A stretch of 64,000 bases of DNA from Candidatus Omnitrophota bacterium. GTDB taxonomy: Bacteria > Omnitrophota > Gorgyraeia > Zapsychrales > JANLHA01. The DNA is taken from NCBI GenBank assembly GCA_038222225.1, contig JBBRHV010000006.1:1626-65625 (forward strand), read 5' to 3'. The position numbers were made by a program, and so were the translations under genes. Below, piece by piece: positions 3 through 58,820 of this stretch. The first letter of the stretch is position 1, and each line of letters starts with the position of its first letter. The notes under the pieces are model-generated. The model searched no databases and was not told where the DNA came from. It worked only from the letters and a program-made list of their open reading frames with translations.

Positions 3-3000
3 TCTGATCAAAGGCCCAATTCTTCAGAGCCACTAGAAAACAATAAAGCGGTTGTTTCCAAGCTTCTGGCCGGGGTTGTGGTTCTGGTGAGCTTGGTATG
101 GCCGCTTGTTTTGTCCAAGGCCTTTGTATCAAAATATCTGGCGTTCACGCTTTGGGGCACATTGGGAGAAGGATATGTTTGGCAGCTCCTCACGTACAGT
201 TTTCTCCATACGAATCCTTTGCATTTGACCTTCAATGTGATCGCGTTTGTTTTCTTCGCGAATTTCATAGAGAGGGCAGTGGGGGTCAAAAGATTTTTGA
301 CTCTCTTTATCGGAGCAAGTGTTGCCGGAGCAGTCTTCCAGGTGCTGGCAATGGCCGCAAACAGTTTCACCTCGCCGGAATTAGCGGAGGCACTGGATAT
401 CACTCCTCTCATCGGACTCTCAGCAGTAGTAGCCGGGCTGATCGGAGCCTTCGGCGTTGTGCTGCGTGATCAGAAAGTGACATTCTTACTGTTGTTCATT
501 ATTCCGTTCCGCATCAAGGCGCAGCGGTTGGCGCAGATGTTGGTCACCGTCAGCATTGCGGCGATCATTTTCAATATAGTTCGCGGGGCCCAGGGCGGGA
601 TCGCCCACGGGGCGCACCTCGGCGGGCTTATTTTTGGTTGGGTTTATACGGAATATTTGCGGCGTGCAGGAAAGATCGATACGTTCATTATTGAAGAGGA
701 GAAACCCAAGGATCCTTCCGGAACCAACGCGGCGGTATTATCCAACTCAGATCCGGAAGGGGGAGTTGTTTCTTATCCGGCCCGTTCCAGCATCAGCGCT
801 GAAGAAAGGGAAGCAGCAAAACAGGGTACGGGCCCGGAAAATCTCAAGGGCTATGTCGTCAATTCACGGAAGATTCTGGGCGTTCCGGTTGAAGGTCTTG
901 AGATCAGTTATTCGGACCGCAGCGGACAAACAGTTGCTGAATATAAGCCGGGCCGTGTTGCCATTGATCTTTTGGGCCTTGGAGCCCGGGCGCCGCCGAT
1001 CGATCTCGAGCATTCTGCAAAATCCCGTCGCTTCCAGAGCATTATTCATGATGTTGTACGACAAATTATATTAGCTTCTCATTATTATGCCCTTTCAGAG
1101 AAAGATGTCCGTCAGGTTTCAGCCCGGCACTTTATCGGCCGGCAGCAAAAAGTTCAGAATTTTCTGGATCAGGAATTTAATCTTCGCGAATTCGGTCTGG
1201 TGTTTGATCCTGCCTATCTTGAGCTTTTAAGAAATTACCAGAGAATTGATCCTCAAATCGAAAGAATTAAAGAGCAGCTTGATCTCTTCAAGGGCGGGGC
1301 TGTGTCGTTTGAAGAGCTGTGTGAAGCTCTGGATGCGCGCGTTATTCTGAATGTGGCATCGCGTGCCTTATTTGAAGTGGGGAACAGTCCGTACCTGGTT
1401 AAAATTTACCGCGGCGGAACGCTGACGGCGAAGGCGTATGCCGCCGAAAAACAATTTTATAGAGAATATAACCCAACGGTCCAGCCGGAGCTGGTTTATT
1501 GTGATGACAATCTGCAGGCCTTGGTTGTGACGGATTTGAACCAGCTGGGATTGGTGCGCATGTTTGATTTTATTCAAGGGCCGTTCATTACGGAAGAATT
1601 GTTGGGTTGTTCGATTTCTTCCATGGCCCATGCCTTGGCGCAGCTGCATAGCAGCGCTGACGTGGCCTCGCAAACCGGTGAGCGGAAATTTGCTGAACTC
1701 AGGCATGAAGTGGACCGGGCGGTGGAGGTCTTAAGAGCGGCCGGGTTCCAAGGCCTTCCCGATGGAAAGAGCCTGGAGGATTTTCTTGCGCGATTCCAAG
1801 ATTCAGTAGTCGGAGAAAATGAACGATTGGTTCACGGCGATTATCTGATGTGGAATATTTTTGTTGACCCGGCAAGCGGAGAGGTGCGGGCCCTCATTGA
1901 CGGTGAGATGAGCGGTCTTGATTCTGCCGCTAAAGAGATGGCGAACACGATCCTGGGATTGATCGATGCCCGCAAGAATCATCCGTTCTTAATCAGTCAA
2001 ACTGCGGAGATGTTACGGTCGTTTTGGAGAGAATATATCCGGGAGACGAAAGACATTACCGGGCAGGAGATTTCTCCGGCGTTTGAGACTCGGGTCCATT
2101 TTTATTGCGCGGTCCAGTTGCTGATTGGCGCCAGAGTTGCGCATGAGAAATGGGCTAAATGGGCCCATTTCAGAATTGAGATGGCCAGGTTTTTCCTTAA
2201 TCAGGAAGCATTTTCATTGGAAGCTTTCATTGAGTTTTTGAATCATAATATTGGCAAACAACCGATCGGTTGGGTCGGGAATTTTGATGTTGCGACTCAG
2301 CACGGGCAGAGGCCGGGCTCGGGCGTTGAGATAATGATTGATGAAACAGGTTGGGCTGATTTCTTTGCCGAGGTTTGGGTTCCAGGAAACATCGGGGATC
2401 CGATTTTTGCATTGGGTATCGGAGCGGAATTACGTGTGACAAACAGAGACACCGGCGTTGTTTCGATTTGGAGGCCAGTGGAATTTTGTCATTTTGCGGG
2501 GAATAATTATCAATTTAGAGGAAGCGTGTTTTATCTCCAGGCGGGATCGTATGATGTGGAACCATCCTTCTCAGCGGATATGGGAGAAACGTGGTTTATT
2601 CCGCAACTCCCTTATGGCCCGTGTCATCTGACAGTGACAAAAGCATTGTCTGGGGAAGCGCCTTCAGAAAAGATAGTGAGTGTGGTCTTTTCTGACCTTC
2701 ACGGTGAGTTGAATGGTTTCCGTTCAGCGCTTGTAAAGCTCGGTATGATTTTACCGCAAAATAACCCGATGGAAGATATTTGGATTTCTCAAGATGTGAC
2801 GGTGGTTGTGGATGGAGATATCATGGATCGTGGTTTGCGACAGAAAGAGTTATACCACTATATCTGCCATCTCATGTTGACCGCCGAAGAAAGCCGTAAT
2901 CGGGTCATCTTTATCTTAGGAAATCATGAGCTGCTTCATCTTCAGGGGACTCCGGATGATTGGACAGCTCATGCGCTTACAGAAGTGATTAGAGAAGGTA

Positions 3001-6000
3001 TTCTTCGAGGAGATATTGTGGCAGCCGCGTATCTAGGTGGGCGTCTGATAGTTCATGCGGGAATTTTACCTTTTATTACCATGGATTTGATAAAGACATT
3101 ACGCCCAGGATTTTTGACTGTCGTTGCCCATCGGTCAGGAAAGTTCGTAAAGGATCTTACCGCGGTTGAAGTTGCCATCGAATTGAATAAAACACATAGC
3201 GTTCTTTCTGCTGACTCTATCGTGAATGAATTCAATCGGAGATTGCGGTTGGCGGTTGAGAAAGGCGATTATTCTGACGTTATTTTCCAGAGAGGGAACG
3301 CTCATTTTGGCGAGAACAAAAGGCCTGGAGAGTCGGGATATATACCCGGAGGCATATTCTGGGCAGACTATGAAAACGAATTGCGGCTGGTTGACCCGCG
3401 TGCGCTTATAGCGCAGATCGGAGGACATAGGGAGGGGAATGCGCTCCGTTGGACAAAGGGAGCCAGGGCTGTGAACGTCAATCTTTGTTATAAAGAGGGA
3501 TTTGGACGCAGCTCCGGAGTCGCTGTGTTTGATGGACAAAACTGGAAAGCTGTTTATTTTGATGGCCGGCCCATGCAAATTATTCCTGCTGTTATGGAGC
3601 GTGCTGTAAAACGACAGACAACAAATTCGGCAGCAGGTCAAGGCGGAACCAACGCGGCTGTTCTTGAGGGTGCGCCTTTTGAAGAACCGGAAACGGGTCG
3701 GATGAGCAGGCGAAGCATGCTGAAAATGCTGGCGCTGGCAGGAGCAAGCTTGCCGTTCATGACAACGACTGCTTTTGCTGATGAACCGACGGTTGATGAA
3801 GTTTTGACGGAACTTTTGAGCACTCAAACAGCGCATGGCCTCATTAAGAGTTTCAAGGGCACAACCGATACCTTCATGCAGAATCAGGCCGTGACCTATG
3901 ATCAGGCAGCCGCCGGGATCGCAGCTCTTGCGGCCGGAAGGACGGCGGAAGCGGTCAGGATTTTTAATTTCTTTTATAACCAGCATAATGGAGGAGATCC
4001 TGTCTGGAACGGGTTTGTGAATATGTATGATGCGACCCGCGGGGTCAAGGGCAACGAGCGCACGATCCACACAGGCCCGAACATCTGGATGGCGATGTTC
4101 AGCCTTCATCTTTATATGGCAAGCAGCGGTCAACAGGCCACGAAGGCCTTGACCCTTGCCAAAGCGCTCATGCAGTGGGCCAGGGGTTTGAATCATCGCG
4201 ATGGAGCGGTTGCCCTTGGACCGGTCCCCAATAATAATATTTTCTCAACAGAACATAACCTTGATTATTTCGCCTTCCTTAAAGGAATACAGTCGTTTTT
4301 GTCCGCGGCAGAAGCGGCGATCGTTCAAGCAGAAATGGACGGGGTTGGAACATGGTTAAAGACACATGCTTATGACCCGGCCAGAAGATTGTTCAAACGC
4401 GGAGCATATGAAAACCCGGTTGTCTATGCTACAGATACGTCAAGCTTTGCATTTTTATTGGGATCGCAGGTTCTGGAAGATTGGGGCATTGTTCGCTCAA
4501 CATTCATCGGCCAGTCCGATGCTGCCTATCGTGTCGGGACACGCGGTTTTGATGTGGCGAGTGTCGAGAACGCCAATTGGACCCCGCGTTCACGTTATGT
4601 CTTCAGAGAGTTTACTCTTCAGATGGCGGTAGGATTTTTGGTGATGGCTGATGATGAACACGATCGAGGCAATTTCACGCTGGAAAAAACGTATCGTGAT
4701 AAGGCTCAGCTCTATGCTTCTCAATCTGGCATAGATGGTGATTATCAATATTGTGAACAGACCGGGGTTCAGCTCTTTTATGATATTCCGAGCTGGAAAA
4801 CAATTAATGGTCAGTCGGCTTCGGTCATGGCCTGGAAGATATTTGCACTTCTCGGTTTCAACCCGTTTGGATTTGTTACAAAGGTGCGGCTGTCCGTCAG
4901 GCGTCTGGCGGCAACTGGAAATATGGAGTTGACTTTGCGCAAGGAAAGTATGGCGTCGCTCACTGCCGAGATTCTTTATTCAGATGACCTGGGAGATCAG
5001 AAAGAATGGAAGAGCGCCGGTTCAGTGGATTTGAGCGGCCTAAGGGCGGTTTGGGTCGATAACGGTTCTCAGACCACAACACATCCGTCGCAAAGCTCAA
5101 GGAGATTCTACCGAGTCTCGGCTGTAAATTCGTCTGTCCAGGGATTGGGCGCAGTCCATCAGGAGTCTAACGGTTTAGTGCCAGAGACGGTATTAATTGG
5201 GTCAAGCGCAGAGTATGGTCAAGAGTTCAAAGATGCGAATGCAGCAGTTTTGCAGGGGAAATTTGTTCAGACAGTGAAGACCAAAGGATCTGGGCTTAAT
5301 CGCTTTGACCTCGGGCGTTGGGGACGCGGGGCACTGCATTCAGTTCTTGCGCTAACACTGCTCACATCCGGTTGTGAGAAAAAAGAGGATACCCAGGGAG
5401 ATGCGTTGTCGGGAGTCGCGGTTCAGCCTGTTGATAGGAGCGCATTGGAGAACAGGATCAAGGAAGAGGTCCGGAAACTAGAGTATTCTGACAAGAACGC
5501 GGAGGATTTTGTAACGATGCTACGTCAATGGAAGAATGCTCAAGGCCAACCGGTTCTTACTGCGTGGGAGCAGAGCATTCTTAATGCCCGGAAACAATAT
5601 GAGCAGGGAGCCATGACAGCCGATCAGTTGGCCGGGATCGAAGCCGGGGTTGTTGGAGAAGTTGCGATGAGGATCGCTGAAGAATTTTCCGCGAATAATA
5701 ATGCTTTTGAATTGACCGATCTGATTGAAAAGAAACAGTCACAGTGTGTCAGCAGGTCAATGGCGGTAGCTATCGTCGGGAATGTACTTGGATTTAAGGT
5801 TGACTTTCTTGATGTTGATGCCAAGGAGATCAGGGCGATTGACGTTCCATTGGCGGAAAGAACTGTGGCGCATGCGGCCACCCTTGTACATTTGACCGGC
5901 GGGACCGTGATCATCGCCGATTCAGCGCTACGGTTTGTAAGCCGGCCGTTTTTAATGGAAGAAACCTACGCCGCAGTCGGGAACTATTGGGAACTTAAGA

Positions 6001-12000: not shown

Positions 12001-15000
12001 TTTTACCCGGAGATGTATACGCTCCCGTCTTTGAAGAGGCGACGATCCGGGCATTGAAAAAAGTGTTGAGCATCTTAAACGCTTCGCATGAAGAGATCAA
12101 GCCGCTTGTTGGTGAGATCAGTCATGGGGTCCTTGGGATCCGGGATATGAGATTTTTAAACATCGGCGGAAGGCAGATTTCGTTTATTTCTCGAACGATC
12201 CAACACGACGGCCGCGGGCGTGACTTTTTGGGACGATTGTGCATGGCTGAAAGCGGGGATTTGAACGGCAGGAAGGCGAATATGAATTTGCTTCGCATGG
12301 TCAAAGAACATGGCCGTCCGTATCCGGTTTCTGTCCTGTTTGCCTCTGGACGAACGATTGTCCAAACGCCGCAAGTCAACAGCGCGGTGCTTTTGACCGA
12401 ACCGCTGAGAAAAATGTTCCGCGCATTGAAACCGTGGCTGGTTATCGGCGCCGTTGCTGCCTGGGTGGGTTTTGAAAGAATGAATGCGAATCTCTTTTCT
12501 GGCCCTGAAGGGGGCGCGCATGAGAAATGGATCTTTCTCGACCTTGTTTTAGCCGCCGGTGTTATTGAAGAAATTCAATACAGGTTTGGCGTGTACAGGC
12601 ATGTCTTGAGGCCTTATTTCGGCGTTGTGCTGTCAGTCATCATCAGTTCTTTAGTTTTTGTGGCGGTCCATCTGATCTTTGCGGATGGGACCTTGATCGG
12701 TTTAATATATGTCCTGTTGTTTGGTGTAATTTCTGCCTTGATTTATGAAACCAGCGGCAAGCTGCGCTACGCTATTCTTCTGCACATGATCTCGAACTTG
12801 ATTTGGATCGGCATGAGCGCCGGTCCGTTTGCATATTTTATATTCACGGTCTCGCTTATGGCGCTGATGAAATTAAGCTTTGTTCTATTTATCTTCTATC
12901 ATACGGTCATCGCTGGCGTTAATGAGAGAGGAATCAAGGCCTTTGAACGTTTTGGAAAAACTGATTCGATTGATGAATGGTTAGGTCAAAAAGTTATCAG
13001 ACCGGCGGTGGCTGTGATTAAAAGCCGATGGGCAAAACTTGGCATGAATAAAATGTGGCGAGCAAAAAGCCCGGATGGAAAAGAACATCGCCGCATATAT
13101 GCTTTGGCATTCACAATCAGTGGATTGATCCTGACCTTGCAGTTTGCCGGAGACAGGATGTTCAGATTGTTCTATCCGGTCTCGCCAAGACCTTTGATCA
13201 CTCAAGAAGAGATGCGACAGAACATTCAGCGGGAGAGGGATAAGTTTGAAGCAGCAAAACGTGCCGCCCTCGCACAGACGCCAGGACTCACCACCAATGA
13301 TATTTTTGGTGTGATGTATTCTTACAAAGCGGATCTTTCATTGATCCGGGTTGTTTTATTCCATGACGGTCGCGCATACAGCGTGGAGGTGACATCGTCA
13401 GGTGAGACAATTGTCGATCCGGTAGCGTTATCATGCTACGAGGGCATTCTTACGCTGTTATTTTCCGACGGGCATATGGACAGACATCGTGAACTTCCTT
13501 TAAACGAACGGACTTGGAATGAAGTTGAAGCTTGGAAAAATAGATTGCCTCAAAAACCTGCACCTAAAGTACGGTCGAAACAGGGCGCGCAAAATTCATA
13601 TCATAAATTCAATACAGCGAGTTTGTACAAAGGGGTCAACAGCGCGGTGTTGTTGGGTTACTCGGATAAAGAAGCGTGGAACAAAGAGTCCGGGTTTTTG
13701 CTGGATACATTTTTTACATTTGAGCAGTATGTCGCGGCGGCTTTATATGATCCGGCCTGGGGATTTTATGGCAGTGGGAAGATCAAACTAGGGTTTGATT
13801 TCGGAACCATGCCGATCGCGCTGTCGCCGTTTTTCGGAGAGAAGGTCGCTGAGCGTGTGTACGAGATGTATATCGGCATGCTGAAAGCCGGTACCATCAG
13901 GCCGGATGAGCCGTTTTACATGATCGAGTTTGGGGCGGGAACCGGCGTGTTGGCAAGGGACGTACTGGCATTCTTTAGAGAACAAGCTAAACGCGGACGG
14001 GTTTATAAACGATTCTATGACAATTTGCATTATGTGATCAGCGACCGATCTAGCCCGCTGCTGGAAAAACAAAAGCAGAAGAATGCGGAGTTCTTGGAGG
14101 AAGGCAAGATCCAGTTTGTGATCGGCGATGCTCAAGAGCTTGAAACATTCTTGGAGAAAGAGCGTCCGATCAAGGGAGTTGTATTCTCCAATGAGCTTTT
14201 GGATGCCTTCCCGTCCCATAAAGTTTACATGGATGAACAGGGAGTGGCACATGCCATGGTCTCGATACCGGCTCTTGTCGATCAGCACAGTCCTGATCTC
14301 AGGCCTGGCAGCAGAGGCCGCCTATCGTCAACGATCAGCTTGTTGGCGCAAGTCGGAAAGGTGCTTAAGGCCCACGGGCTTTCGCTTGAAACATTAACTC
14401 AAAAAAGCCGTGAGTTCGCAGGGCGGTCGAATGTAGTCAAACAGATGGTGGATGATGGGGCCGTTGTTTTAAGTCGGGAGGATTTCTGCCGTATCCAGGA
14501 AATTTTCTCCGGTGAGAAAGTCAGTATGTATCGCGAGCTTATCCACAGGGTTATGGCGTTCTCTGAGATGACGGTTCCCGCGGCGCTGGTGCCCGGTTTA
14601 AAGGAATATTTAGATTTCCACAAAGATGAAATGAGGACGGCCCTTCAGGGAGAGTCAGGATGCGCAGTTGTCTCTTCCGGGTGGCTTTCGTTTGCAAAGC
14701 ATGTTTCCGGTTTGATCGATCAGGGATATGTCTTTACGATCGATTATGGAGAGACTACGGCGACATTGTTGAGCGCCAGGCGCAGAGAGAATTTTCCGAT
14801 TTCGATCTATCATCGACGTTTGGGAAGAGAGCGCAATCCTTATCTTCACCCTGGTGATGTGGACATATCGGTTGCGCCGGATTTCACGGTCTTTGCCCAG
14901 GCGGGGCTTGTTCATGGCTTGGTTCCGGTTTATCACGGGGAGCTCCGGTTCTTGCAGGCAGATTCAACCGAAAGGATTGACTCCGCGCAAACCGCTTCAC

Positions 15001-21000: not shown

Positions 21001-24000
21001 CGACAAGCGCCAGTGTTCTAAATGGAGAAAGCCAGGAAAGTGCGGACTTTGGCGAGGATCAAGATTTATCTCAGATTCTGTTGATGGCCCAAAGGGACCT
21101 CCGGTCTGGGAACCTTTCGCGGTTTGCCGGGATCAATGCTGAAAATCATAAAGAGCGATTATCAGGATTTATTTCTGAGAGCATTCTTCAGAATGAGCGT
21201 TTTGCGCAGGTCATCGGCCTCTTGTCATTTATTTCTGATAATCAGGCTAGGTCTGCTTATGGCTATTCGCCGATTTGTGAACATATGAGTCAGGCGGTTG
21301 CGGTTGAGACGGCAATAAAAGAATTCCAGGTATTAGGCTTGGCGGGCTGGAAGGTCGATTCGAGAGTTTTGACCGGTGTCAAGGATTGGTGGCCCATCGG
21401 TTCTCATCATTCAGCCGCGATCGTTGTGATCGGGGATATTCGTTTCTTTGTCGATATGACATTTCCTGTTCTCATCGAAAGCAATTCAGATTATGCGGAT
21501 TTAAGCAAGCCTCATGGGCTTGTGATGATCCCTGAACAAGTTTTGATCGAACATCCTTCGTTCCTTCAGCTTTATCAGACAGGGATCGCCAGATCCATGG
21601 ATTGCGGATTTTCTGAAATCAAGGGCGTCCAAAGGGAGGATTTAAAATTGACCATGCGGCTCCTTTCTTTAGACGAATTTTCTGATGTGATCGAAACTAT
21701 TCCCGATGATTTTGTCGCTGAACGCTACTCCAAAGAAGAGAGAGCTGCTTTACCAGCCCAAATTGAGAGCCAGGCACTCAAGATCTATTGTTTCTATCTT
21801 CCTCGGGCGGTTTCTCAGGGAGTCCTGGCAAAAGGAGTCGGCATGGTTTTTGTCCGCCAGGAGGGAACGGGCCGTCGCGAGATCGATTTCTTTTTCTTGC
21901 GATGCAGCCTCACTTATATGGGATTTGGGCCGGAAATGATTAGGCGCGTTTTGAGAGAACTTCGCAAAGGAACATCAGGCGTGAAGGAAGTTGGAATAAG
22001 CTCCGGGTTCTTGAAGATGCTTCCGGAAGACAACGGGTCTTCAAAACGGGCAAGGCTTTCGAGAAAGTTCTTTTGCTATCTGGGATTTGAAGGTGATCCG
22101 TTGACGTTGCGTTTGCAAACTTCCGAGGAAAAAAACAAGGTCCCCTCCGCAGCGACAAATGCTTCGGTCATTTTGGATGGAAAAACCTTGAGCGAACAGA
22201 AACCGCTAACGGTTGAAGAATCGTGGCAGCTATTCGCCAGAAAGTTGGAGAAGGGGGCGCGTACGAATAGTCATTCTGGATTGGAAGACAATCCGGTCAT
22301 GTCGCATTTTAACGAGACGAAAAAAAGGAACGCGAATAATTCCTTTGAAACAAATGCGTCCATTCTTCTGGAATGGAGATTGAGGAAAATCATGCAGCCG
22401 TTTTTTGAAGGCGGATATTACGTCGAGAAGCAGGGGGATTCACGTCATGAAATGTTTCTGCGCGTGTGCCATCCGGAGCCAGAGAGACAGGGCGTGTTTC
22501 GTGGTGAAGACAAGACCCGCGCTTTCTGGGTTCAAGCGAGGGAAGATGAGTTTGAGGTCAACTGGGTCTTTCCGGATCTTCCGCCTGGCAAAGGTCTGGG
22601 GCGTGCTTTCATGGCCAGTGCACTTTTATTGCAGGATGGTTTTTGTGGAGGAAAGAAAAAGTTTATTATTGAAGACACAAAAATCTGGTTGTGCCGCAGC
22701 TTCAGAAAGCTTCCCGGATTCGGGATTTTTTATTGGGCGAAAACGTTTCAGTTTGTTGCGTTGCTGTTTTGGTTGGCGGGCCGCCGGGATGTTCTGAAAT
22801 ACAGGCTGACCGGGCGCGTACCCGAGGTTTCAGCGAAATTTAAAGCCTGGCTGCATGAAAGAAATGAACACAACAAGGGCAAGGCTGTAGGGACAGAGCT
22901 TCGAACGACCAATGCCGCGGTGTTGGGCCGTTGGGTGCATGCGTTCGAAGAGGGGTGGGGGCGTGCGGCGAAAACAACCTTGAGCAGGGTTGCTGATGAA
23001 TCGCTTGCATGGAAAAGAAAAATTAATGAGTGGGTCTCTTGGCTGAAAATTTGCCTGCACGTGACGGACCGCAGTGATCGAGTGGTTGCGGCACAGCAAC
23101 AGGATATCCAGATTATTGGAAACAATTTCGGTACGGAGCAACACCCAGCCCGCGTCGGATCGGTAGTTCATATGTCCAGTTCGCATGAACAGGACCCGGG
23201 ACTACCGGTCTGGCGCACATATTTCGAAGGAAAACTCAGCGGCGGGGTAAACGCGGCTGTGCTTGTCCCTGATCGCATGGGCAAGACGTCGGCGGACTAT
23301 TTTGATGAACTTGTCGCGCAGTTTAATGATCAAAACAATGAAGTTTGGCAGAGATTTCGTGCTTCTGTTGAAGCGAACCCCGATCAGTACGATTCAGTTT
23401 GGTTGAAAGTTTTGAAGCAGGCGCGTGCATTAGAGGTTGAAACACAGAAGCAGGTTCAAGAACCCGTGAAGATATTTTTATCGCTGGATTCCGTCTTGAT
23501 CGTTCCTGAAGATGGAAGCATGACCGGTCCTTTATTGCCGTTGGCGCCGGATTCGGAAGCAACGCATCATTTGCCTGCCCTGCCTGTGGTGCCGGAAGCA
23601 ATTCTTTTATTCATTTTCGTTTTGAGCCGCAAAAGACAAGGCCGCGGGGGGAAAGGCAGGGAGTACAGTTTAGCTGCATTCGTTGAGAGCATGCAGAGCC
23701 GATGGAAGGCCGTGAAACGTGCTGGTTTTACGGGCAAAGATTTCTTTGGAAAACGCCATGTCTATAATCTCACGTTGCGGTCTTCGTGTCGGAATTTTGC
23801 GTCAACAGGGTTGAGTGATCCGTCCGTAAAGTTTGCAGGAGAAAGTAACGCATCAGTTCTGAAGGATGCAAAGAATCGTGAGAAGCGTGACAGTTTCAGA
23901 AGTGGACGGCGGTCTCTTTCTGTCGTGTTCACCGTTCTTGGAGTTGCGATCGTTTTGTTTATCGCGCAGACAGCTTTGGCAGGATTGGAAAGGGCGGCCT

Positions 24001-30000: not shown

Positions 30001-33000
30001 AAAAAAGGAAGAACCGGATCCATTTGCGTCCGGCCAGTAGAATTGTTTATGTTGCGAAGTACATCTGGGATCAATTGAACATTCGTATGATCGTTGAAAA
30101 GGAAGGAGATCAACAACAGGTGGATGCCCGAAGTATCAACGGCCTTGCACGTCTGGCAATCTTTGACGGGGAAAAAATTTCAATTCGAACAGAGGGCTTG
30201 GCAGATAGGCAGATCAAAGGCAAAGCGGTTGAACTTTTTGCTAGGATTTTGAGAGACCCGGGGGTTCTTCAGCACAAAACGATTTGGGACATTTTTTATT
30301 TCTTTGATGAAGGGCGGGGGATAGATCAATTGTCCTTGCGTAAATATAAGCGTGCGGTTGATTTGATCAAGCTGGATGCGGCGGAGTCGGACCGACCTGA
30401 TAGGGCGCAAGTCAATTCCTCAGTTCTATTCGGAGCATCTCTGGCGCAGATCGATGCCTCTATCGTTGGTGATGTGGTCGGAATGATCATGTTTGCTTTG
30501 GGGTCGGCGGTTACCTGCATTGCGGCCCTGTTGATATGGCTGGTTAGAACACAGCGGTTCCGTATTCATGGGTTCTGGGTTAGGAGCTATACACCGGAGG
30601 AGATGAAAATTCGCCGGAGCGTTCATGCGCGGATGATCGATTTTTGCATCGGAAGCAAGCATTCTCAGAGAATGGCAGCTCAACGCATGGCGGGCCGTTT
30701 TACGCATTCGGCACGCAAATCATACAGATATCTTGTTGATATCTATGGAAGAGAAAAAAGCAAAACGGAATTTTTAAAATTTTTGAGAGAAACAGAAAAG
30801 GATCGACTGGTTACTTTTTTAGTTTTCTTAGAAAAGAAGAAGATGCGGTTGATCGTCGCTCCGCGATTTGTGGAAGGCGGAAAAGAATTCCGTCATCTGG
30901 ACATGCAGCATGGGTTCGCTTTGGAGGGCGTTCTAAAAAATTATGTTTACGGATATTTTGAAGGGATTGACCCAACGGACGATCAAGGAAAGATCGTGCT
31001 GATGTATTTGGCGGGGGAGGAGGGGTTCAAACAGCTACAAGAGTTGGCATTTTTATTTATTACAGGCGGAATATCCATAGTGAAGCCAGTCGAGCTCTTT
31101 ATGGATTCGGGAACGATAGGTGAGATCAAGACTGTGCGTGATCTTTTGCGTGTTGAGTATTTCTATCAGATAAAAAAGCAGAAGCAAAAAGAGGCGTTAG
31201 AAAAACGCATTGCCGAGGATAGGGCCGCGCAAGACGGGACCAACGCGGCGGTTTTAGAGAACGGCACAGCGGATCATGAACAGGACGGTGGCGAAACAAA
31301 TGCCGCGGTGCTGGATTCCGAAAACGAAAGCAAAGGGGAATTTTTGGCCGGGACCCAGCAGGGGATTCGGCTTGGGCTTTTGACACTTGAGGAGGCGCGT
31401 CTTTGGGAGAGGGCGGCAAAGATTGTTGATGCTCCTGTCGGCATGGAGATAGAATTCAGTCATCCGGAAATTGCGACATTAGGTGATGATGAGTATGATC
31501 TTCCCTATTATATTAGCGAACATTATTCGGATCCTCATTTGGAATTTAATCTTGAGCCATCTTGGAATCTTGGCATTCAAAGATATTTGGTAAGGCATAT
31601 TTACCGCAGTATGGGGTTGTCTGAGGATGATGTGATCTCGGTCCAGTTAAACTGCGGTATCCGCAAGAAAGATTATGAGGGGCTTTCTCAAGCTTCCCGC
31701 GGATTATTTTTATCTATGGCGCATTATTTAATGCTTGCGGTTACGATCGTTTATGCATCAAATCAAAGGATCTTATCAAAGAAATCAGAAAAGGTGGCCG
31801 AAAAACGGGATTGCGCTGAACCGCTTGATGGAGAACCCTACATTCGGATCGAATACGGTTTTCTTGATACGATCGATGAGGGGTGGCTGGTTCTCTGGAT
31901 CTTGCATCAGGTTATTTGGAAAACTGCAAGGTTCAGCGACGATCAAAAAATTTCCGGCAAACTCATTCGTGAAGAGGAGCAGTTGCTAATCAAGATCGGG
32001 CAGGACATGGTTATTCAATTGCATGAACGTCTTCCAGGTATTAGAGGATTAAGTGCGAATGATATATTTGACCTGTCGGATGCTCGGACGTGGTTTAGGT
32101 TGGTTCCGTGGCGCCAGGAAAATCCTGCTACGGTGAAGGCCATTGACAATCTTCTCCAGAAAACTGTGCTTCAAGTTTTGTCCACTTTAGGAGGGTCAAA
32201 CCATACGCCAGAGAAGGAAGTGCCGGTTTGGATTTTACCGGCTGGAAATCGGGAGACATTTTTAAGATGGTTTGGTAATCGGGAGCAGGCGATTGCTCAT
32301 ATTCCTGAGCCTACAGGTGGACAGGACGAGGTAAGGGATGGCGGAGTTAATTCTGCCGTTTTGGATCAGAGAAACATTGTTGGTGTTGAAGTGCACTGTC
32401 CGGCAGGATCAGGATATTGGCTGAGAGATATTCTTTATGAAGGGATCCCGGTTCAAGGCGGGCTGGTGATCCGGTATTATGATCAGTCGCGGTGGTCGTC
32501 AGGAATTGCAGGGATACGGACGGTTCGCAGTGATCATGGATTTTTTACAGAAGTGGATATGTTAAGAATATTAAATGGAGAGGTCCCGACAGACATTTTC
32601 TACGTGGGGGCTTTTCATTTGGGATGTGTTCGGCATGCGTTTGAAAGCGCGCTTCAAATTCAAAAGACAGGCCTGTGGAACGGGTCTCAAGCAAATCATC
32701 ATTTCATTTCAAACCGCATTGCCTGTGATTGTGATGATTTCGATATTCGTGTCAGTGATGCTTTGCCGAGGCTGAATCTGAGGACTGCAACGCCGTTTGC
32801 CTGGCGCAGAAATTGGAGTGTCAAAGCAGCGGTTATTCGGGGAGATGAGGTTGTAAGTAACACACGATTTATCGATCAGCTTCAAGCGAGGCTTTATTAT
32901 TGGAACGATGTGCCGGAATTTAAGGAATGGATAAGCCGTGGGATTCAGCAGACAAACGCAGCGGTTTTGAACCAGAGAATGTTTGAGATCGTGGATACAC

Positions 33001-39000: not shown

Positions 39001-42000
39001 TGGCGTTCGCGGAAGATCTTGTTGCCCTCATGCCGGATCCTGAACACTTTGATGAAACGGGTGAGTGGATGACGTGGTTTAAGCCTCATGCATTTAATGG
39101 GAAATTCACCCTTGAAGCATGGGGTCTCGGGCAGGAGTTCATCGATCGGTTGAACAAGGTGCGCGGGGCAGACACGAGCAAAATCAACAGCGTCGGGGTT
39201 AATTCGTCTATTTTTGGTCATTTATTCGGGGCAAAGAAAGAAGCGGCAGACATTGATTCTACGGAGGTCAGACAGGAGATAACAGAGTGTGATTTTGATC
39301 AGGCCGTGCGCGGAGTTCGACGCCTGGTTAATGAAACGCCGACAAATGAAATTGCAAAAGTTCTTTACGGCCTGCTTCAGTATGAGGAGGACTATTTGTA
39401 TTATCAGATTGTTCGTTATGAGGCTGCCAAGAGAATAGCCAAGGCATCGGTGGAGGAATATGAAGATCTGAAACAGTTGATCAGCACATTGCGGATGCTC
39501 GGGAAGATGATTGAAGATCGCCAAAAATTGTTTGAGGAAACAGGGGAAACGAACGTTGACTTTTATTTATTAGCCCTTCGACAGTCTCGACAGAAGTTAG
39601 CAAGATTATTCCGTTTTCATATTCGGGGGTATGAGAATCTTGACCGGGTCGTTCAACGGTTGGACAGCGACACGGTGGAGTATTTATTTTCGTTCTTCAG
39701 CAGGGCATCAGTTCAAGAATTCACCAGCTTAGATGAGCTCATGCAGATCATGACATTTGTCCGGCGGCGCACTTCTTTGGTGGATGAAGATCTGTTGGCG
39801 CGCGCCAAAGAAAGCCTTGAACGGATCATGGTGGAATGGGTTTGTGAAGTCGGCGGAGAAAAGGATCCTGATCTAAGGAGCCAAGAAGTCAGGAATATTC
39901 TAGAATACATTACACAGCATGATCGGACATTCCGTCAGAAATTGAAAGAAGGCATCAAGAGGGCCATTGGTTTCTTAGCCCGTCAAATCAGAAAGAGTCA
40001 AGATGACGCAAGGGAGGCGCAAAACTTGGCAGATAAGAAGGCCGTTGAAGGACGGCAAAACACACTGATTGATTTAAGCGTGAGTTATTCGGCGCTGATG
40101 ACAGCAGTGGATGATGAGTCAGGAGACGGAAATCTTGATGGAAACAATTTATGGGAAAGCCAAGACAGCCAACAGACAGATAAAAAATCAAACAATGATT
40201 TGGGTGCAAATGCTTCTGTATTGATGGGAAGAGAAAATTACAGGCATCTTAAAAAAAGATTTGATGATACAAACGCGGCGCTATTGATTGGAAGAAGTGA
40301 CAGGTCACAGACAAACAAGGAAATAAGGGCGAAGAGGCTCATTCAGGGGTCGATTTTAAATGCGTTTCTCTTTTGTCTTCCTGCTTTGGTCATTGCGGTG
40401 ATCGCTGTTGTGACTTGGGGGCCAAGCTGGAAGATATTTGTGGCGGTCTGGGTTATTCTGGCGTTAACACGGTTTGCAATGTCCATGCGCCATATTCCCG
40501 ATATTTGGAGAACATTGCAGGGCTTAGGTACGCCAACGAAGGGCGGCATCATTGAATTGGCTAAGGCCACTAAGACCAAGATGGAAAGGAAAGCTGTGGC
40601 GCGTGAGCAAGCCCGCAAGAAAGCGATTCATCAGGCCAAGGCTGCTATGGGCAGGGTTTCTCCCAAGAGTTATGCCATACAAGAGGAGTATAGCACCGAG
40701 GTGGGCCGAAAGATCCCGGCGGAACTTAGAAACGACGAAGAAATTGTTGAGCAATATGAAAAATTGACAGCCCGTGCGGAAGAATTTTTTGCGCGCAAAG
40801 TACGTTCACAAAAACCGAAAGAGACTGCGCCGCAGCATATTCCTGAGGTGGCACCAATACCGATAGAGCCTGTCCAAAGACAGGAAGCGCCTGAGGCGCG
40901 CGAAATGGCCAGAAAACGGTTCATTCGTCGACAGCTGGCTGAGGCGCGCCGTTATATTGAAAAGCTGGACAGCCGCGGGTTTATGAGCGCGCATGAGTTT
41001 TTGAACGCCGCCGAAACGTTTAAACCGGAGTGCGTTAAAACATATCCGGATGATGCTCAGGTGAAGGATTTTCTGACGTGGTTTGATTGTGCAGTTCAGG
41101 CTGTGGCACAACAGGTCGCGGATAATGTTCGGCGCATGGAATTTGAGGAGCGCAAAAAGGAACTGCTGGCATCATGGCGAATGATGGTTGAGAAATTGGA
41201 AAGAGCCCGGCAACGGCTGGATCAGGCTATGGCGGCAAGGATTTCCAAAGACCGCGCTTCGTTGGCAGAGTTGCAGAGAAGGATGGATCAACAGGTCGCG
41301 GATAATGTTCGGCGTATGGAATTTGAGGAGTGCAAAAAGGAACTGCTGGCATCATGGCGAATGATGGCTGAGAGATTGGAAAGAGTTCGGCAGCGGCTGG
41401 ATCAGGCTATGGCGGCAAGGATTTCCAAAGACCGCTCTGCGTTAAGTGAGTTGCAGGTAAGGATGGATCATCTGGCAGCGACCATAGAACAGCTTCGTCA
41501 GGCAAAAGATGTTTTGCGCGCGTTGACTTTGCCATCCGCGACCGCCGGTGAGGATGATTTGCGATCCGCGATTTTACAGGTGCTTCCCGTTGAAGTCAGA
41601 GAAGACCCGCGCTTGGCGCTTTTTATCGAACAGGCCAGGTTGCGGTTGTATGAACACGCTGTGACGCGGGTTTTGGATATTTTGTCTCAGTCTTCAGTTG
41701 ACCCCAGAACTTTTGATGACAGCGAGGCCTTCCGCCAGGCATGGATTGCGAAAGTGCCGGTATGGATGCAGGAGGATCAACGTATCATTGCAGCCCTTGA
41801 AGAGCGTATTGATCAAGGCCTTTTGGTAATAACCGAACAGGAGAAAAAGTCTGCTCAAGTTAAAAGGGAACAGGCATTAGAAAAAAGAGCGACTATTGGG
41901 GAACTTTATACCGCCTTAGGAAAAAATGATTTTGGAACGGCACTGACGAAAGCCTTTAAGTTGCGCACATTGGTTGCTGATATGCCGGTAGAGGATTGGT

Positions 42001-48000: not shown

Positions 48001-51000
48001 CGAAAATAAAAAGAAGCAGTTCCTTTTTTTCACGATGCCAGAATCAGGAAGATGACATCGACAGCATTATGACCGGCACGATGCTGAAAGAAGATTACGG
48101 CGGGATTGGTAACAGCAAGCTGCAGTTCGGGCGCAAAGATCTTATCGAGGACCGCAATGAACCGAAGATGATGTTCGGTACCTGCGCCCACGAGTGGACG
48201 CATATTTTTAACCGTTGGATTATTGAAATTTATAGGATCGAAGAAGAGGATGGACAGGATGCGATCGATGAATTTTTGGCGGATCTGGGTGCGGAAATGT
48301 TTTTTGGAGAAATGGGCTGGCAGCAGGCAAAAGAGGTGCGCCGGAATAAATTTGTATTTCAGCACGCGAAAGTATTTGGGCGGAGTCCCCGGGCAGATCA
48401 GATCAGCCATGAGCAGCATGAGGCGGCCCGTGTCGCCTATAAGGAGATGCAGCGGTTTTTGGAAGCCAGGGAAAGGGAGACCGGTGAACGCGTTCCTCTT
48501 TCTGGAGAGATGCTGTTTTATCTTTGGGGTGCTTTGGGAGAGAGGAAAGCAGAGGAGATATCGTTTGTCATGTTGCAGGATTTGCTGCAGGTCCGGTATG
48601 GTTATGCGGAGTTTGTTCATCGGCGGAAAAACAAGTTCCAGTCCCGTCCCCTCGCGGATAGCGAGATGGAAGAAAAAGGAGTAACGCAACGTGAACCTGA
48701 TAAGGACATTGTTTATGTGATCAGATGTTGGCATGTAGAGGAAGAGGAGCGCGCCGAGCTGTTTGAAGGACCAAATGTTTTACGAATTGCTGTTTCATCC
48801 GGCACAGAACCGCAGGCCAGCGGATCCCAGGATATTCAGGTCATACAAGAGGCAACAAACCCGAAGGATGGAGAAGCGCCATCTTCTAACGCCAACTCTG
48901 CGGTTTTAAACTATTGCGTCGCGTGTTTTGCCGGCGTTGTCGCGTCTCCCTGGGTCGCATTGCCGGTTGACGTTGTCGCAAGCATTGCCATGATGTGGGG
49001 AATCATTGTTATGTCTGAGGGGATCGAGATGCGGCACTCTTTAATTTTTAGGGCTCTCACCTGGATCAAAGACCGTTATGAATCACGCAAGGTCACGATC
49101 GAATTTTTGAAAATGGTCTTGAGGTTTGCAAACATGGTTGGTTTGTATGCGCTTTTATCTTTTTCGTGGGGAACGCTCATTTTGCAATGGATCTCGTTAT
49201 TAAGCATAAAGCTGGATTGGCCTGAGTGGATGACTTTTATAGCAGCGCTCCTACCGGCAGCAGCCTTCATCAGCGGAGTAAGTATGGTGGTGGTCCCGGA
49301 GATCATCCGGGTGCATAAGGAATGGAAGAGATATCTTAAGAATATCCGGGGAGATCGTGCTCCGGAATGGATGGCCCAAAAATACAGCCATATCTCCGCG
49401 GAAGAATTGCTCCACCGTTCGGTGAGGATGAAGCGTATTGGGCGGGTCTTGTTAGCTGCTGTTTGGGGAATAGGTATCATTCTTTTGGCGATGTCGTTCC
49501 AGCATGCTCCGCACATGAAAGTTCTTAAAGGCATAAGCATTGTTGTTCTGTTTTTTTATTATCAGACATTGGTTGCAGCCCGGGAAATGAAGAAAATGGC
49601 AGAAGAATTGGAGCAGACAAAAATTCTAAGGGAGGCTTCTTTAAAAGCCAACCGATCCAGGGCAGGGCCGCCGGTCAGTTCTTATTCGGATTTTAAAGGT
49701 GGTATCAATTCAGCAGTATTGAGTGAACAGAGCGAACCGGATCATACGTCTCCCAATAAAGCAATTTTTGATTTTGTTCGACAGAGTCTCGGGGATGGAA
49801 CAACCCAAACAGTGAATGAGGTGGCGGAAGCGCAAAGACCCGTGATTCTGCAGGGTGGCAGAGATCAGGCGCTTAGAGCAGGTAATGATTCTTTGCCTGA
49901 TGATTTAAGAAAAGTCAATGCCGGTTATCAAGCGGACATTTATTTCTCGCCGAGTCGACGGATGTTTTATAAGGTCAGGAAATCCACGCTGTCTGCCTAC
50001 TATAGGTCATTACGGAATCATCTTCTTGATCGCGGGCTGTTCAGAACATCGGCGTATCTGTGGATTATGGACACGCTGCGGAAAAATTATCAAAGGTCCG
50101 CTGGAATGAAGACCGTGGAGGGTCAGCCTTTTTACGATATTCTTTCGCAGGCCGGTAAGGCCGGACGGCCGAACACCGGTGTTCTTGTCCGCATAACGAA
50201 GATGCTTAAGGCCTTCAGAGCGGTTGTTAGTTTTTGTATTGTTATGGCTGGCAGTATGTTTATTTTTTCAAAGACGGTCAGGGCTGAGAAGGCGCTTTTC
50301 CATGACAATTATTTCAAGGGTTATGAGGACATGCTTAAGTTTGGGTTTGTGCAGCAAGGATATGTGGCAGATTTTCGAGTGATCAGTGTCCCTGCGGAGG
50401 ATCGGAATGGAATTTTTAAATGGAGATGGTTGGAGCGGAACCGAAAGGTCATTGAACAGTCGGAAGTGGTTGAACTGATACAGGTGTTGCGGGAAATGAC
50501 GGATGCGCAGTTTTATGTAGCGGTCGAGCGTTACATTGAGATCCAGCATGCGTTTTGGCGCTGGGGATTTTTTAATCATGCTTTGGGATTTTTGGGAAAT
50601 TATGGATATGTCAAAGATAATGGTCAGACCAACGGACCACTGGTCCTTTTTGACCCGGGAGAGATCGTTAGTAATGGTGATAACGCCGAAGATAAAATTT
50701 TGGAGGTAGTCGAGCGCAAGAAGGAAGGGGCGTATAAGGACCTCAACGCATTGAATCCAGTTTGGGGGCAGTATTACAAGGTTAGAGTTGAGGCTGAACT
50801 AAACCGCTCCAAATTTTACGAGCTTTGGTGCAGTGAAGCCGGGTGCCGGATAGAGACAATCCAAAATTATTCCACTAACGCCGCGGTCGGTTCCAAATCC
50901 CGTTTCGTTAGCCGAAAAAGGGAAAGAGAAGATCGTCCCGCGATGGCCTTGCCGAGTTGGGAAGAGTTCAAGGACCCTCGACGGTCATGGCTGGTAAAAT

Positions 51001-56891: not shown

Positions 56892-56956
56892 CTGGCCGGG
56901 ATTTCTATAAAATGGTTTTGGTAAAAATAAAAAATTATATGAATTTTAGATTTTAT

Positions 56957-57009
56957 GTATAATAAGTGAACTTGCGGTTGTTTTATTAGGGATATTGAAG
57001 ACGAAGGAG
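56957..57009 (+). promoter_or_regulatory. Possible promoter -10 element and Shine-Dalgarno for the aldolase gene
   Basis: AT-rich 126-nt intergenic region. TATAAT at 56957-56962. AAGGAG at 57004-57009, 8 nt before ATG 57018. No convincing -35 found. Confidence 0.4.
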
Positions 57010-57017
57010 AGGAAAAA

Positions 57018-57968
57018 ATGTATAGACCGGAAATTCGGGTGTTTGACTGCACGATCCGCGATGGCGGGTTGATGAACAACCATTTATTTGATCACAGTTT
57101 TGTCAGAGATGTTTATAAAGGATTATCCGAGGCTGGGGTTGACTATATTGAGCTCGGATATAAAAATTCCAAAGATCTTTTTTCGCCGGAGGAATACGGC
57201 GCCTGGAAATTCTGTGAGGATGACGAAATCCGAAAAGTGACCGAAGGCATTGAATCCAATGCCAAGATCTCGGTGATGGTGGATATCGGCCGGGTGAATA
57301 TGGAAGATATAAAACCGGCTTCTGAGAGTCCCGTGCACATGGTCCGCGTGGCCAGTTATGTGAAGGATATTGATAAGGGGATCTCGATGGCCAATGAATT
57401 CCATGATAAGGGTTATGAAACCACCATTAATATCATGGCTATTTCCAAAGATCAGGGGCCGGACCTCGAAGCCGCTCTTTATCAGATCGAAAAGGAAAGC
57501 AAGGCGGATGTGGTGTATATTGTGGATAGTTTTGGGTATTTTTATCAGGAAAATATTGAGCATTTGACCAAGTTGTATAAGAGGATTTTAAAGACACGCG
57601 AGATTGGTTTTCATGGTCATAATAATCAGCAGTTGGCCTTCGGCAACACGATTGAAGCGATTATCCATGGGGCGAATTTTCTGGATGCAACAATTTTCGG
57701 GATCGGCCGGGCTGCCGGGAATTGTCCGATCGAGCTTTTGCTCGGGTTCTTAAAGAATCCGAAATTTGATATCCGTCCGGTTCTTGATCTGATCTCCCGG
57801 GATTTTGTCCCGTTGCGTGAAAAGATCGAATGGGGATATGTCATTCCTTACGCGATCGCCGGTATGCTCAATGAGCATCCTCGCGCTGCTTTGGCTTTGC
57901 GAAAGACGGAGAAGAAAGAGAATTACCGTGATTTTTATGAGAGTTTGACTAATACGGGGTTGGATTAA
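57018..57968 (+). CDS. HMGL-like (DRE-TIM) aldolase / pyruvate carboxyltransferase-domain protein
   Basis: 'VFDCTIRDGG' N-terminal motif and 'FHGHNNQQLAFGNTIEAI' (HxH metal site) typical of the HMGL/4-hydroxy-2-oxovalerate aldolase/isopropylmalate-synthase superfamily. Strong SD. 316 aa. Confidence 0.8.
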   Translation: MYRPEIRVFDCTIRDGGLMNNHLFDHSFVRDVYKGLSEAGVDYIELGYKNSKDLFSPEEYGAWKFCEDDEIRKVTEGIESNAKISVMVDIGRVNMEDIKPASESPVHMVRVASYVKDIDKGISMANEFHDKGYETTINIMAISKDQGPDLEAALYQIEKESKADVVYIVDSFGYFYQENIEHLTKLYKRILKTREIGFHGHNNQQLAFGNTIEAIIHGANFLDATIFGIGRAAGNCPIELLLGFLKNPKFDIRPVLDLISRDFVPLREKIEWGYVIPYAIAGMLNEHPRAALALRKTEKKENYRDFYESLTNTGLD

Positions 57969-57999
57969 AAGACAGCGTAAAGGGAAGCGGCAGGTGATA

Positions 58000-58130
58000 G
58001 AAATACAATTGAAATATAATGGAAATACATAGAAATAAGAAATTCGGAAAAAGAGAAAGCTTAATCAGAGCAAGTAATCGTTAGGGTTTTTTATTTCAAT
58101 GTATGTCTATATTTTTCCATGTATTTCAAT
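58000..58130. repeat. Phased GAAATA direct repeats and inverted ATTGAAATA copies in the aldolase-eda intergenic region
   Basis: GAAATA at 58000, 58011, 58022, 58032 (10-11 nt spacing), GAAATT at 58039. ATTGAAATA at 58008-58016, with its reverse complement TATTTCAAT at 58092-58100 and 58122-58130. Confidence 0.5.
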
Positions 58131-58147
58131 CTGTTTTTAATTTGAGT

Positions 58148-58777
58148 ATGAATATTTCCCAATTTAAAAAACTTCCTATTCTGGGCATCTTGCGCGGGAT
58201 CGAAAAGAAACAGGTTTATCCTCTGACCCGGGCCGTGATGGCCTCTGGTCTTAAGAGTATTGAGATCACCATGAATACGGCAGGCGCTGAAGACATGATC
58301 CGTGAGATGATCGCGGTTTCTGACGGTGAGCTGACCGTTGGGGCCGGAACAGTTTTAAATGCCGATGATATGGAGCGAGCGCTGAAGGCCGGAGCAGAAT
58401 TTATTGTGTCGCCTGTCTTTATTGAAGAGGTGGTCGCCTCCTGCAACGAACTTGATATTCCGGTTTTTCCCGGCGCGTTGACGCCTCAAGAAGTTTTTCA
58501 TGCGTGGAATGCCGGAGCCACCATGGTCAAGGTTTTTCCTACCAAACAATTAGGCCCCGGTTATATCAAAGAGCTGAAAGGGCCGCTTGATCAAATTGAA
58601 CTCATGCCCTGCGGCGGTGTGAGCAAGGACACAATCGCTGAATTTTTTAAGTGCGGAGCCTCAGCGGTTGGGTTTGGCGGAAGTATTTTCCGCAAAGAAT
58701 GGCTTCTGGCAGGTCAATATCAGCACATCACTGACGCTATTCGGGAGCTGATTTCAGCCTCTCAACAAGTGGCGTAA
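58148..58777 (+). CDS. eda: 2-dehydro-3-deoxyphosphogluconate (KDPG) / 4-hydroxy-2-oxoglutarate aldolase
   Basis: 'LPILGILRG', 'SIEITMNT', 'GAGTVLN', 'FIVSP', 'PGALTPQE', 'VKVFPT', 'MPCGGVS' match the KDPG aldolase family. I prefer ATG 58148 (209 aa) over the track start at 58103. Confidence 0.8.
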   Translation: MNISQFKKLPILGILRGIEKKQVYPLTRAVMASGLKSIEITMNTAGAEDMIREMIAVSDGELTVGAGTVLNADDMERALKAGAEFIVSPVFIEEVVASCNELDIPVFPGALTPQEVFHAWNAGATMVKVFPTKQLGPGYIKELKGPLDQIELMPCGGVSKDTIAEFFKCGASAVGFGGSIFRKEWLLAGQYQHITDAIRELISASQQVA

Positions 58778-58820
58778 TGTCTTGTGATGATAAGAGGCAT
58801 AGATATTGCAGGGTGATAAT

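Follow-up and report, generated by a model that had tools for sequence, protein, structure and literature searches.

Omnitrophota are already known to encode giant multi-enzyme proteins of up to 147,155 amino acids (aa) (10.64898/2026.06.07.730766), and the papers that describe them (10.64898/2026.06.07.730766; 10.1101/2023.11.21.568195) report no cleavage points, linkers or junction motifs. Here we describe the left edge of a 64,000-nucleotide (nt) stretch of a Candidatus Omnitrophota genome (contig JBBRHV010000006.1; the whole stretch is hereafter termed the window), where a giant open reading frame (ORF) enters the window with a module of the rhomboid family. This ORF is a mosaic of ~57 unrelated modules parted by a short peptide motif, [T/A/V/I]-N-[S/A]-[A/S]-V-L, which we refer to as the junction. 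On balance, we favor the explanation that the edge holds the hydrophilic tail and first transmembrane helix (TM1) of the first visible module, the rhomboid, that the GTG at nt 78 is an internal codon, that the hexapeptide NNKAVV encoded at nt 39-56 is no junction, and that the ORF continues upstream.

Two further systems invite comparison. Viral polyproteins are cut at conserved sites by an embedded chymotrypsin-like protease, such as the picornavirus-like 3C protease or the nidovirus Mpro. Rhomboids with six transmembrane (TM) helices have an established N-in/C-in topology. The motif that rhomboid proteases recognize combines a small residue at P1, a hydrophobic residue at P2' and a large hydrophobic residue at P4 (Strisovsky et al. 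2009, PMC2941825).

The giant ORF runs off the left edge of the window

Frame 3 of the forward strand is alone in being open at the left edge, frames 1 and 2 being closed by stops at nt 34-36 and nt 5-7, and from its first complete codon at nt 3 it encodes SDQRPNSSEPLE-NNKAVV-SKLLAGV. This is exactly the reading of these codons given in an initial annotation of the locus. No in-frame ATG, GTG or TTG occurs between nt 3 and nt 77, nor can the codon ending at nt 2 be a start, since it reads NAG and must encode Gln, Lys or Glu or be a TAG stop. The earliest start-like codons (GTG 78, GTG 87, TTG 93 and TTG 111) all lie within a hydrophobic run, and no Shine-Dalgarno-like sequence was found upstream of any of the four. 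Translation of the ORF begins upstream of the window. The left edge comprises the following features:

3-56891, + strand: visible part of the giant ORF, 18,962 codons and a single stop at the end, open at the left window edge
3-47, + strand: hydrophilic tail or linker SDQRPNSSEPLENNK (residues 1-15) before TM1, from hydropathy and model disorder
39-56, + strand: NNKAVV, best read as a polar cap (N-N-K) and the first TM1 residues (A-V-V), from a position-specific scoring matrix (PSSM), alignment and model
48-113, + strand: rhomboid TM1, AVVSKLLAGVVVLVSLVWPLVL (residues 16-37), from hydropathy, alignment with homologs and GlpG, and a modeled helix at residues 10-37
78-80, + strand: GTG, codon 26 (Val) inside TM1; its listing as a start is an artifact of taking the first start-like codon in an edge-open frame

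Because a start at GTG 78 would remove half of TM1, this codon cannot be the true start of the gene. It is the earliest start-like codon in frame, and this is what speaks for a genuine start at GTG 78 (or at GTG 87 or TTG 93) and a protein that opens with a truncated TM1. Such a start is nonetheless extremely improbable: initiation at GTG 78 would leave a 12-residue stub in place of a helix that is present in all homologs and in the GlpG structures, nothing resembling a Shine-Dalgarno sequence precedes it, and the frame upstream is open and encodes a homologous tail and TM1. The initial annotation had already noted that the hydrophobic run spans this GTG, and the alignment, hydropathy, GlpG profile and structural model presented below all place codon 26 in the middle of TM1. 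The boundary of the gene is thereby corrected: it is longer than the 18,937 aa listed and starts outside the window. Because the start is not in the window, the length, module count and N-terminal architecture given here are lower bounds.

Antisense to the rhomboid module lies an ORF of 134 aa (window 8-412, minus strand). It is probably spurious, and public assemblies record no such product.

The hydrophobic run is placed as TM1 of a rhomboid module

The hydrophobic run KLLAGVVVLVSLVWPLVL (residues 20-37, nt 60-113) had been proposed to represent TM1 of the rhomboid fold, ahead of the WQLLTYSFLH motif, and hydropathy, alignment with homologs, a GlpG profile and a structural model agree with that placement. 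The most hydrophobic 19-mer within the first 60 residues spans residues 18-36 (Kyte-Doolittle [KD] hydropathy 2.2). Residues 1-12 have a mean KD hydropathy of -1.98, which is the 2.3rd percentile among all 12-mers of the ORF (median of pre-junction linkers, -1.18), and residues 1-9 are disordered in the structural model. WQLLTYSFLH (residues 60-69, nt 180-209) lies C-terminal of the TM1 run and opens the Pfam Rhomboid match. Because the Pfam model begins at this L1/TM2 motif and the rhomboid core has six TM helices, an additional helix N-terminal of residue 57 is required.

The rhomboid module was aligned with 10 free-standing rhomboids (alignment A1, 11 sequences), mostly ~287-aa Verrucomicrobiota proteins that are 30-35% identical to it over the alignment and 33-38% identical in the best local matches. 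In A1, AVVSKLLAGVVVLVSLVWPLVL is aligned with the first TM helix of the free-standing proteins, ATVVLLVVNVVAFIL. When the A1 profile was compared with the PDB, solved GlpG structures, including that of E. coli, were matched from TM1 onwards (E = 4e-8). An AlphaFold (AF2) model based on A1 (predicted local distance difference test [pLDDT] 65, ~60 over TM1; predicted template-modeling score 0.58) contains a continuous helix at residues 10-37, and E. coli GlpG structures are its sole confident fold neighbors (probability 0.99-1.0; template-modeling score ~0.5 on the target). These results identify the hydrophobic run as TM1 and complete the six-TM core of the rhomboid module, the remainder of which has the following features:

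171-662, + strand: Pfam Rhomboid domain PF01694, TM2-TM6, residues 57-220 (E = 1.8e-24; 87 bits against a cut-off of 22.6)
180-239, + strand: L1/TM2 motif WQLLTYSFLHTNPLHLTFNV with H69, H74 and N78, invariant columns of A1
420-422, + strand: candidate catalytic Ser140 (GLSA, TM4); G138 and S140 invariant in A1, codon read directly
615-617, + strand: candidate catalytic His205 (AHGAHLGG, TM6); H202, H205 and L206-G208 invariant in A1

The L1/TM2 motif reads WQLLTYSFLH-TNPLH-LTFN and conserves the pattern H-x4-H-x3-N; W60-Y65, F67, H69, H74, L75 and N78 are invariant in 11 of 11 sequences. Since the His, His and Asn of TM2, Ser140 and His205 are all invariant, the module looks catalytically competent, and as judged from its sequence it is probably an active protease. 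By the N-in/C-in topology of six-TM rhomboids, both of its ends would be cytoplasmic, and its flanking linkers would lie on the same side of the membrane as the linkers of the soluble modules.

The C-terminal side of the module also differs from its relatives. The DUF6576 domain (PF20216) of most of the nearest free-standing homologs is missing, and TM6 is followed at window 663-740 by a short linker and a junction at residues 240-246.

A conserved peptide separates the modules of the giant ORF

Pfam matches identify the rhomboid and modules of the APH kinase, metallophosphatase, TPR, Ser/Thr kinase, HATPase, Rce1-like protease, methyltransferase, GNAT (several), HPr, PALP, alanine dehydrogenase, HTH and SEC-C types; many other modules have no Pfam match. 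Fifty-six junctions were accepted, 44 of which fit the strict pattern N-[AGS]-[AS]-[VI]-[LIVF] while 12 are recognizable variants. All 44 occurrences of the strict pattern among the six frames of the window fall in the frame of the giant ORF, and the other five have none. It is conserved as a peptide and not as DNA: Asn is encoded by AAC or AAT, Ser switches between AGC and TCN codons, and the Ala, Val and Leu codons are free. Numbering from the Asn as position 0, the residue at -1 is T, V, A, I, S or G and that at +1 is S, A or G in 56 of 56 junctions, and the 12 degenerate junctions vary solely at 0 (Asn to Ser), +3 or +4. A literature search found the motif in no paper. The first unambiguous junction closes the rhomboid module:

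720-740, + strand: GTNAAVL (residues 240-246), end of the rhomboid module; a member of the 44-member strict set, disordered in the model

Seven other modules of the ORF begin with a TM helix. In these, the junction precedes the helix by 2-21 residues, and in three of the seven the spacing is 19-21 residues.

Several further observations concern the junctions themselves. Paired junctions 9-37 residues apart, one of them often degenerate, occur at window 31236-31313, 3624-3665, 40209-40290 and 49707-49769, as exemplified by GTNAAVL-ENGTADHEQDGGE-TNAAVL. The C-terminal ~270 aa of the ORF duplicate two internal modules at residues 7637-7949 (window 56382-56420 versus 23229-23285), with the internal copy reading GKLS-GGVNAAVLVP-DRMGK, which includes a junction, and the C-terminal copy reading GKLS-MAEA-DRMGK, which lacks one. 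Because these copies of GKLS...DRMGK differ, a junction has been gained or lost between homologous segments. The idea that modules retain an ancestral start Met after junctions was rejected (23% observed, 27% expected).

NNKAVV is most simply the beginning of TM1

The initial annotation had read NNKAVV as a degenerate junction. Scored with the junction PSSM, the hexapeptide obtains 4.0 bits when the matrix is trained on the 44 strict sites and 3.0 bits when it is trained on all 56, whereas 56 of 56 accepted junctions score at least 12.7 bits (56-site matrix). Its score is reached by 21 non-junction positions in the real protein and by ~21 per shuffled protein. NNKAVV matches four of the five core positions, with N at 0, A at +2, V at +3 and V at +4 (the last found in 1 of 44 strict junctions), as do 31 other non-junction positions, giving 32 in total where ~40 are expected from shuffles. 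The residue match noted in the annotation, an Asn at the second position and A-V-V at the fourth to sixth, is therefore present, but across the protein it is no more than chance would provide. NNKAVV departs from the junctions at -1 (N) and +1 (K), the two positions whose residue class never varies.

In free-standing rhomboids and GlpG, TM1 starts with ATVV/PVTW, and the A-V-V of NNKAVV aligns with these residues. NNKAVV is modeled inside the helix at residues 10-37 with a pLDDT of ~60, while the junction at residues 240-246 is modeled in disordered coil. Most simply, NNKAVV is a polar cap plus the first turn of TM1 and not a module junction. A second possible relic junction in the tail, PNSSEP (residues 5-10), scored -3.5 bits and was rejected.

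A decayed and probably non-functional junction between an upstream module and the rhomboid would account for some of these observations. Within just the 15-19-residue boundary stretch in which NNKAVV lies, a match at four of five core positions has a chance of only ~3% (2.6-3.3%), and under a wide PSSM (-12 to +4) the score of NNKAVV is equaled or exceeded at only four non-junction positions. NNKAVV also ends a strongly hydrophilic stretch, resembling the linkers ahead of real junctions, directly before the first structural element of a module, one other TM-first module has its junction two residues ahead of the TM helix, and a similar NKAIF occurs 16 residues past the true junction GINSAVL at residue 16569. 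We nevertheless regard a relic junction as unlikely. The 3-4 bits stand far from the minimum of the accepted set, its changes fall at -1 and +1 whereas those of the degenerate junctions fall at 0, +3 or +4, and the relaxed pattern N-x-[AS]-[VI]-[LIVF] occurs outside junctions three times against ~3.4 estimated from residue frequencies; in addition, homology to free-standing rhomboids, whose TM1 begins here, explains the A-V-V, and the segment is modeled as helix and not as coil. Comparison of the left-edge peptide with post-junction linkers elsewhere in the ORF gave short, insignificant matches alone (E > 2).

Junctions persist in a sister lineage while modules change

The product of a gene next to the giant ORF shares 94% and 85% identity with proteins from metagenome-assembled genomes of Candidatus Omnitrophota. 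In the 94% lineage, represented by six assemblies, a giant ORF of no fewer than 11,370 aa lies in synteny, and its junctions likewise follow x-N-[SA]-[AS]-V-L (TNASVL, NSAVL, TNAAVL, NSSIL and TNAAVI). The 85% relative has ordinary genes at the position of the giant ORF and no junctions. Segments of the sister-lineage ORF lie at:

L002, 1-9868
L003, 1-9868
L004, 1-6660
L005, 3-3236
L006, 2-5176
L007, 2-5170

All of these contigs end 5' within the giant ORF, the longest stretch ahead of the stop being 11,370 aa. Homology to the window is confined to the C-terminal module of the sister ORF (~320 aa, 60% identity); the remainder of the last 3,289 residues of that ORF is unrelated to the window. 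Module content turns over quickly; what persists is the junction and the terminal module.

More distant relatives were reached through a radical-SAM-like module (residues 3736-4126), which has ~35 homologs, many of them inside multi-module Omnitrophota proteins with punctuation motifs of their own. Compared with shuffled sequences, the protein P0195 contains [AST][AS]SP[VIALM] 15 times (0.1 expected), P0187 contains R[TAS]S[PV]x nine times (0.03 expected), P0183 contains RR[RK]SPSG five times (0 expected), and P0178 and P0182 contain AAPAGR five and six times (0.01 expected). These patterns were defined after inspection, and their excess over shuffles is very large. This points to a lineage-specific punctuation of giant and large mosaic proteins.

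Some of these relatives carry a trypsin-like module near the N-terminus. Pfam Trypsin_2 modules are found at residues ~150-300 of P0187 (L009 1190-9739) and ~600-740 of P0181 (L010 141-7226), and a GDSGSP signature lies within residues ~1-100 of P0184. In the visible 18,962 aa of the window ORF, we found neither a G-x-S-G-[GSA]-P signature nor, with phmmer or hmmsearch, a match to the Trypsin_2 modules of the relatives.

The ORF likely continues upstream of the rhomboid module

Most likely, a canonical junction lies just beyond nt 1 and the ORF continues upstream, and we likewise consider it likely that at least one further module precedes the rhomboid. Given the spacings of 19-21 residues in three of the seven other TM-first modules, it would not be unusual for a junction to lie just outside the window. 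Continuation is further favored by the published length of Omnitrophota giants, by the sister-lineage ORF, which at no less than 11,370 aa is also ended by a contig end, and by the visible 18,962 aa being devoid of a trypsin-like module when P0187 and P0181 each have one N-proximally. Under a broad gene-length prior and with an edge independent of the gene, we estimate that the start lies within the next few dozen codons with a chance of ~5-20%, a figure that already allows for the edge falling at a module boundary.

Several observations weigh against our explanation of the left edge. In free-standing homologs, 11-19 residues precede the aligned TM1; the window already contains 15. The complete relatives P0187 (2,849 aa) and P0181 (2,361 aa), both flanked by ordinary genes, begin with a hydrophilic tail of 13-17 residues followed by a TM anchor (tail and TM entries YQKAIIWVVIVCFLF and FHKAIAVVVVCLFLV). 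A canonical junction is absent from the 15 residues before TM1, while in four of the seven other TM-first modules it lies within 14. The structural model is only moderate in its scores, above all over TM1, and the four-of-five match of NNKAVV is unusual for so short a stretch. Taken at face value, the edge fits a true N-terminus short of a few codons just as much. The initial annotation had held that the tail, NNKAVV and TM1 together imply at least one more module upstream; this does not follow, as the free-standing homologs, P0187 and P0181 all start similarly close to a TM helix.

Accordingly, the rhomboid might be the first module of the protein, with the true start ~2-15 codons upstream of nt 1, TM1 serving as the N-terminal membrane anchor and NNKAVV being a chance match. 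The 15 visible residues fall within the range seen before TM1 in free-standing rhomboids, the visible tail has no canonical junction, and P0187 and P0181 share with the window not only a short tail and TM anchor but also a similar K-A-[IV]-[IAV] helix entry. Even so, this arrangement appears doubtful to us. It needs a window edge that by coincidence lies no more than a few dozen bases from where a >57 kb gene begins, and NAG, the codon before nt 3, cannot serve as a start. The trypsin-like module that complete relatives carry N-proximally is not seen here, and the tail is acidic and linker-like whereas the tails of the homologs are basic. We therefore retain continuation upstream as the preferred reading.

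Upstream DNA was sought in genome, metagenome and viral contig collections and was not found. A search of genome and metagenome contigs with the rhomboid module returned no confirmed relative among the matches listed, and a wobble-tolerant 59-nt pattern of the TM2 motif was absent from metagenome, genome and viral contigs. A protein database search with the rhomboid module returned free-standing rhomboids alone, at no more than 38% identity, and neither the MnmA gene nor the 8-412 antisense ORF gave a hit in exact look-ups. The only trace of the same strain was a 4.6-kb contig of an independent Logan assembly (SRR19962012) covering the 3' end, with 100% identity across window 54530-59152. For the last 786 aa of the ORF (window 54531-56888), no match was obtained among 5.8 billion database proteins. 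Because the sister contigs encode a terminal module 60% identical to that of the window, this database evidently omits giant and contig-cut products, and for the same reason its silence on a relative in which a junction is followed by a rhomboid is not evidence of absence.

Proposed processing of the giant protein

The punctuation probably constitutes the recognition site of a site-specific protease, a step suggested by the analogy with viral polyproteins, by the Trypsin_2 modules of the relatives and by the Asn-to-Ser variants of the junction. Self-cleavage by Asn cyclization at an invariant Asn was considered and rejected, since three otherwise good junctions carry Ser; recognition by a protease fits better. 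Tentatively, the ORF could be a polyprotein of well over 19,000 residues whose ~57 or more unrelated enzyme and membrane modules, the rhomboid among them, are released by cuts at [T/A/V/I]-N-[S/A]-[A/S]-V-L by a trypsin-like protease encoded in the missing 5' part, with protease and junction having co-evolved as pairs in each lineage; we regard this as a possible model, less probable than not. A candidate for the processing protease may be encoded upstream of the window or at another site in the genome. The rhomboid module itself as the processing enzyme is a lead only: the residues at P1 and P2' fit, but that at P4 does not, and the sites lie outside the membrane.

Other modules of the ORF also touch on proteolysis or on the idea of separate products. 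An Rce1-like/CPBP module (PF02517) with the EExxxR motif VIEEIQYR (window 12561-12584) and a zincin-type HExxH motif, CAHEWTH (window 48183-48203), are candidate protease modules. At window 3702-3779, a module that begins 13 residues past the junction at residue 1217 starts with what resembles a twin-arginine or Sec-type signal peptide of its own, MSRRSMLKMLALAGASLPFMTTTAFA, which could act N-terminally only if the polypeptide were cut or initiated there. Separately, a coiled-coil-like module at window 41109-41366 contains tandem repeats of a ~60-residue unit (QQVADNVRRMEFEE[RC]KKELLASWRMM...).

Discussion

The conservation of a motif at the protein level between modules makes the processing of a giant protein into many products testable, with the cleavage sites predicted. 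The content upstream of the rhomboid, be it a start codon or a protease module, is among the most informative pieces missing from this picture.

Compared with free-standing rhomboids (PF01694; GlpG of E. coli and H. influenzae and the ~287-aa Verrucomicrobiota proteins), the first visible module has the same six-TM core, with TM1 situated 20-25 residues ahead of W-[RQ]-x-x-[ST]-x-x-F-x-H, and it retains H-x4-H-x3-N, the Ser of G-x-S and the His of A-H-x-x-G-G. It differs from them in forming part of a polypeptide that exceeds 18,900 residues and has its N-terminus outside the window, in having a junction at residues 240-246 where its nearest relatives have a C-terminal DUF6576, and in its acidic, linker-like tail before TM1, which is basic in the free-standing homologs. 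With respect to the rhomboid recognition motif (PMC2941825), a cut between [A/S] and V would always place a small residue (A or S) at P1 and Leu at P2'. The P4 residue of the junctions, however, is mostly T, A or V and not large, and the sites lie in soluble linkers away from TM helices.

The likeness to viral polyproteins consists in one long ORF, unrelated units and a short conserved peptide in flexible linkers, and related Omnitrophota proteins carry Trypsin_2 modules. In contrast to viral polyproteins, this is a cellular chromosomal gene with a mixture of membrane and soluble modules, its visible 18,962 aa are without an embedded chymotrypsin-fold protease, and its cleavage is predicted.

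A further comparison is with the Omnitrophota multi-enzyme giants (10.64898/2026.06.07.730766; 10.1101/2023.11.21.568195), with which the ORF shares its origin in Omnitrophota, a length of more than 10,000 aa, the tiling of the polypeptide by many unrelated Pfam domains, none of them dominant, and scattered TM segments. As an Omnitrophota protein of at least 18,962 aa with ~15 unrelated Pfam families and several TM modules, it belongs to class 1 as published (10.64898/2026.06.07.730766). Its modules are punctuated by ~56 copies of a peptide motif, a feature that those papers do not describe; the motif is common to the sister lineage, and the motifs of other lineages differ. Omnitrophota giant multi-enzyme proteins were thus known already; what is new here is a punctuated variant of them that can be tested.

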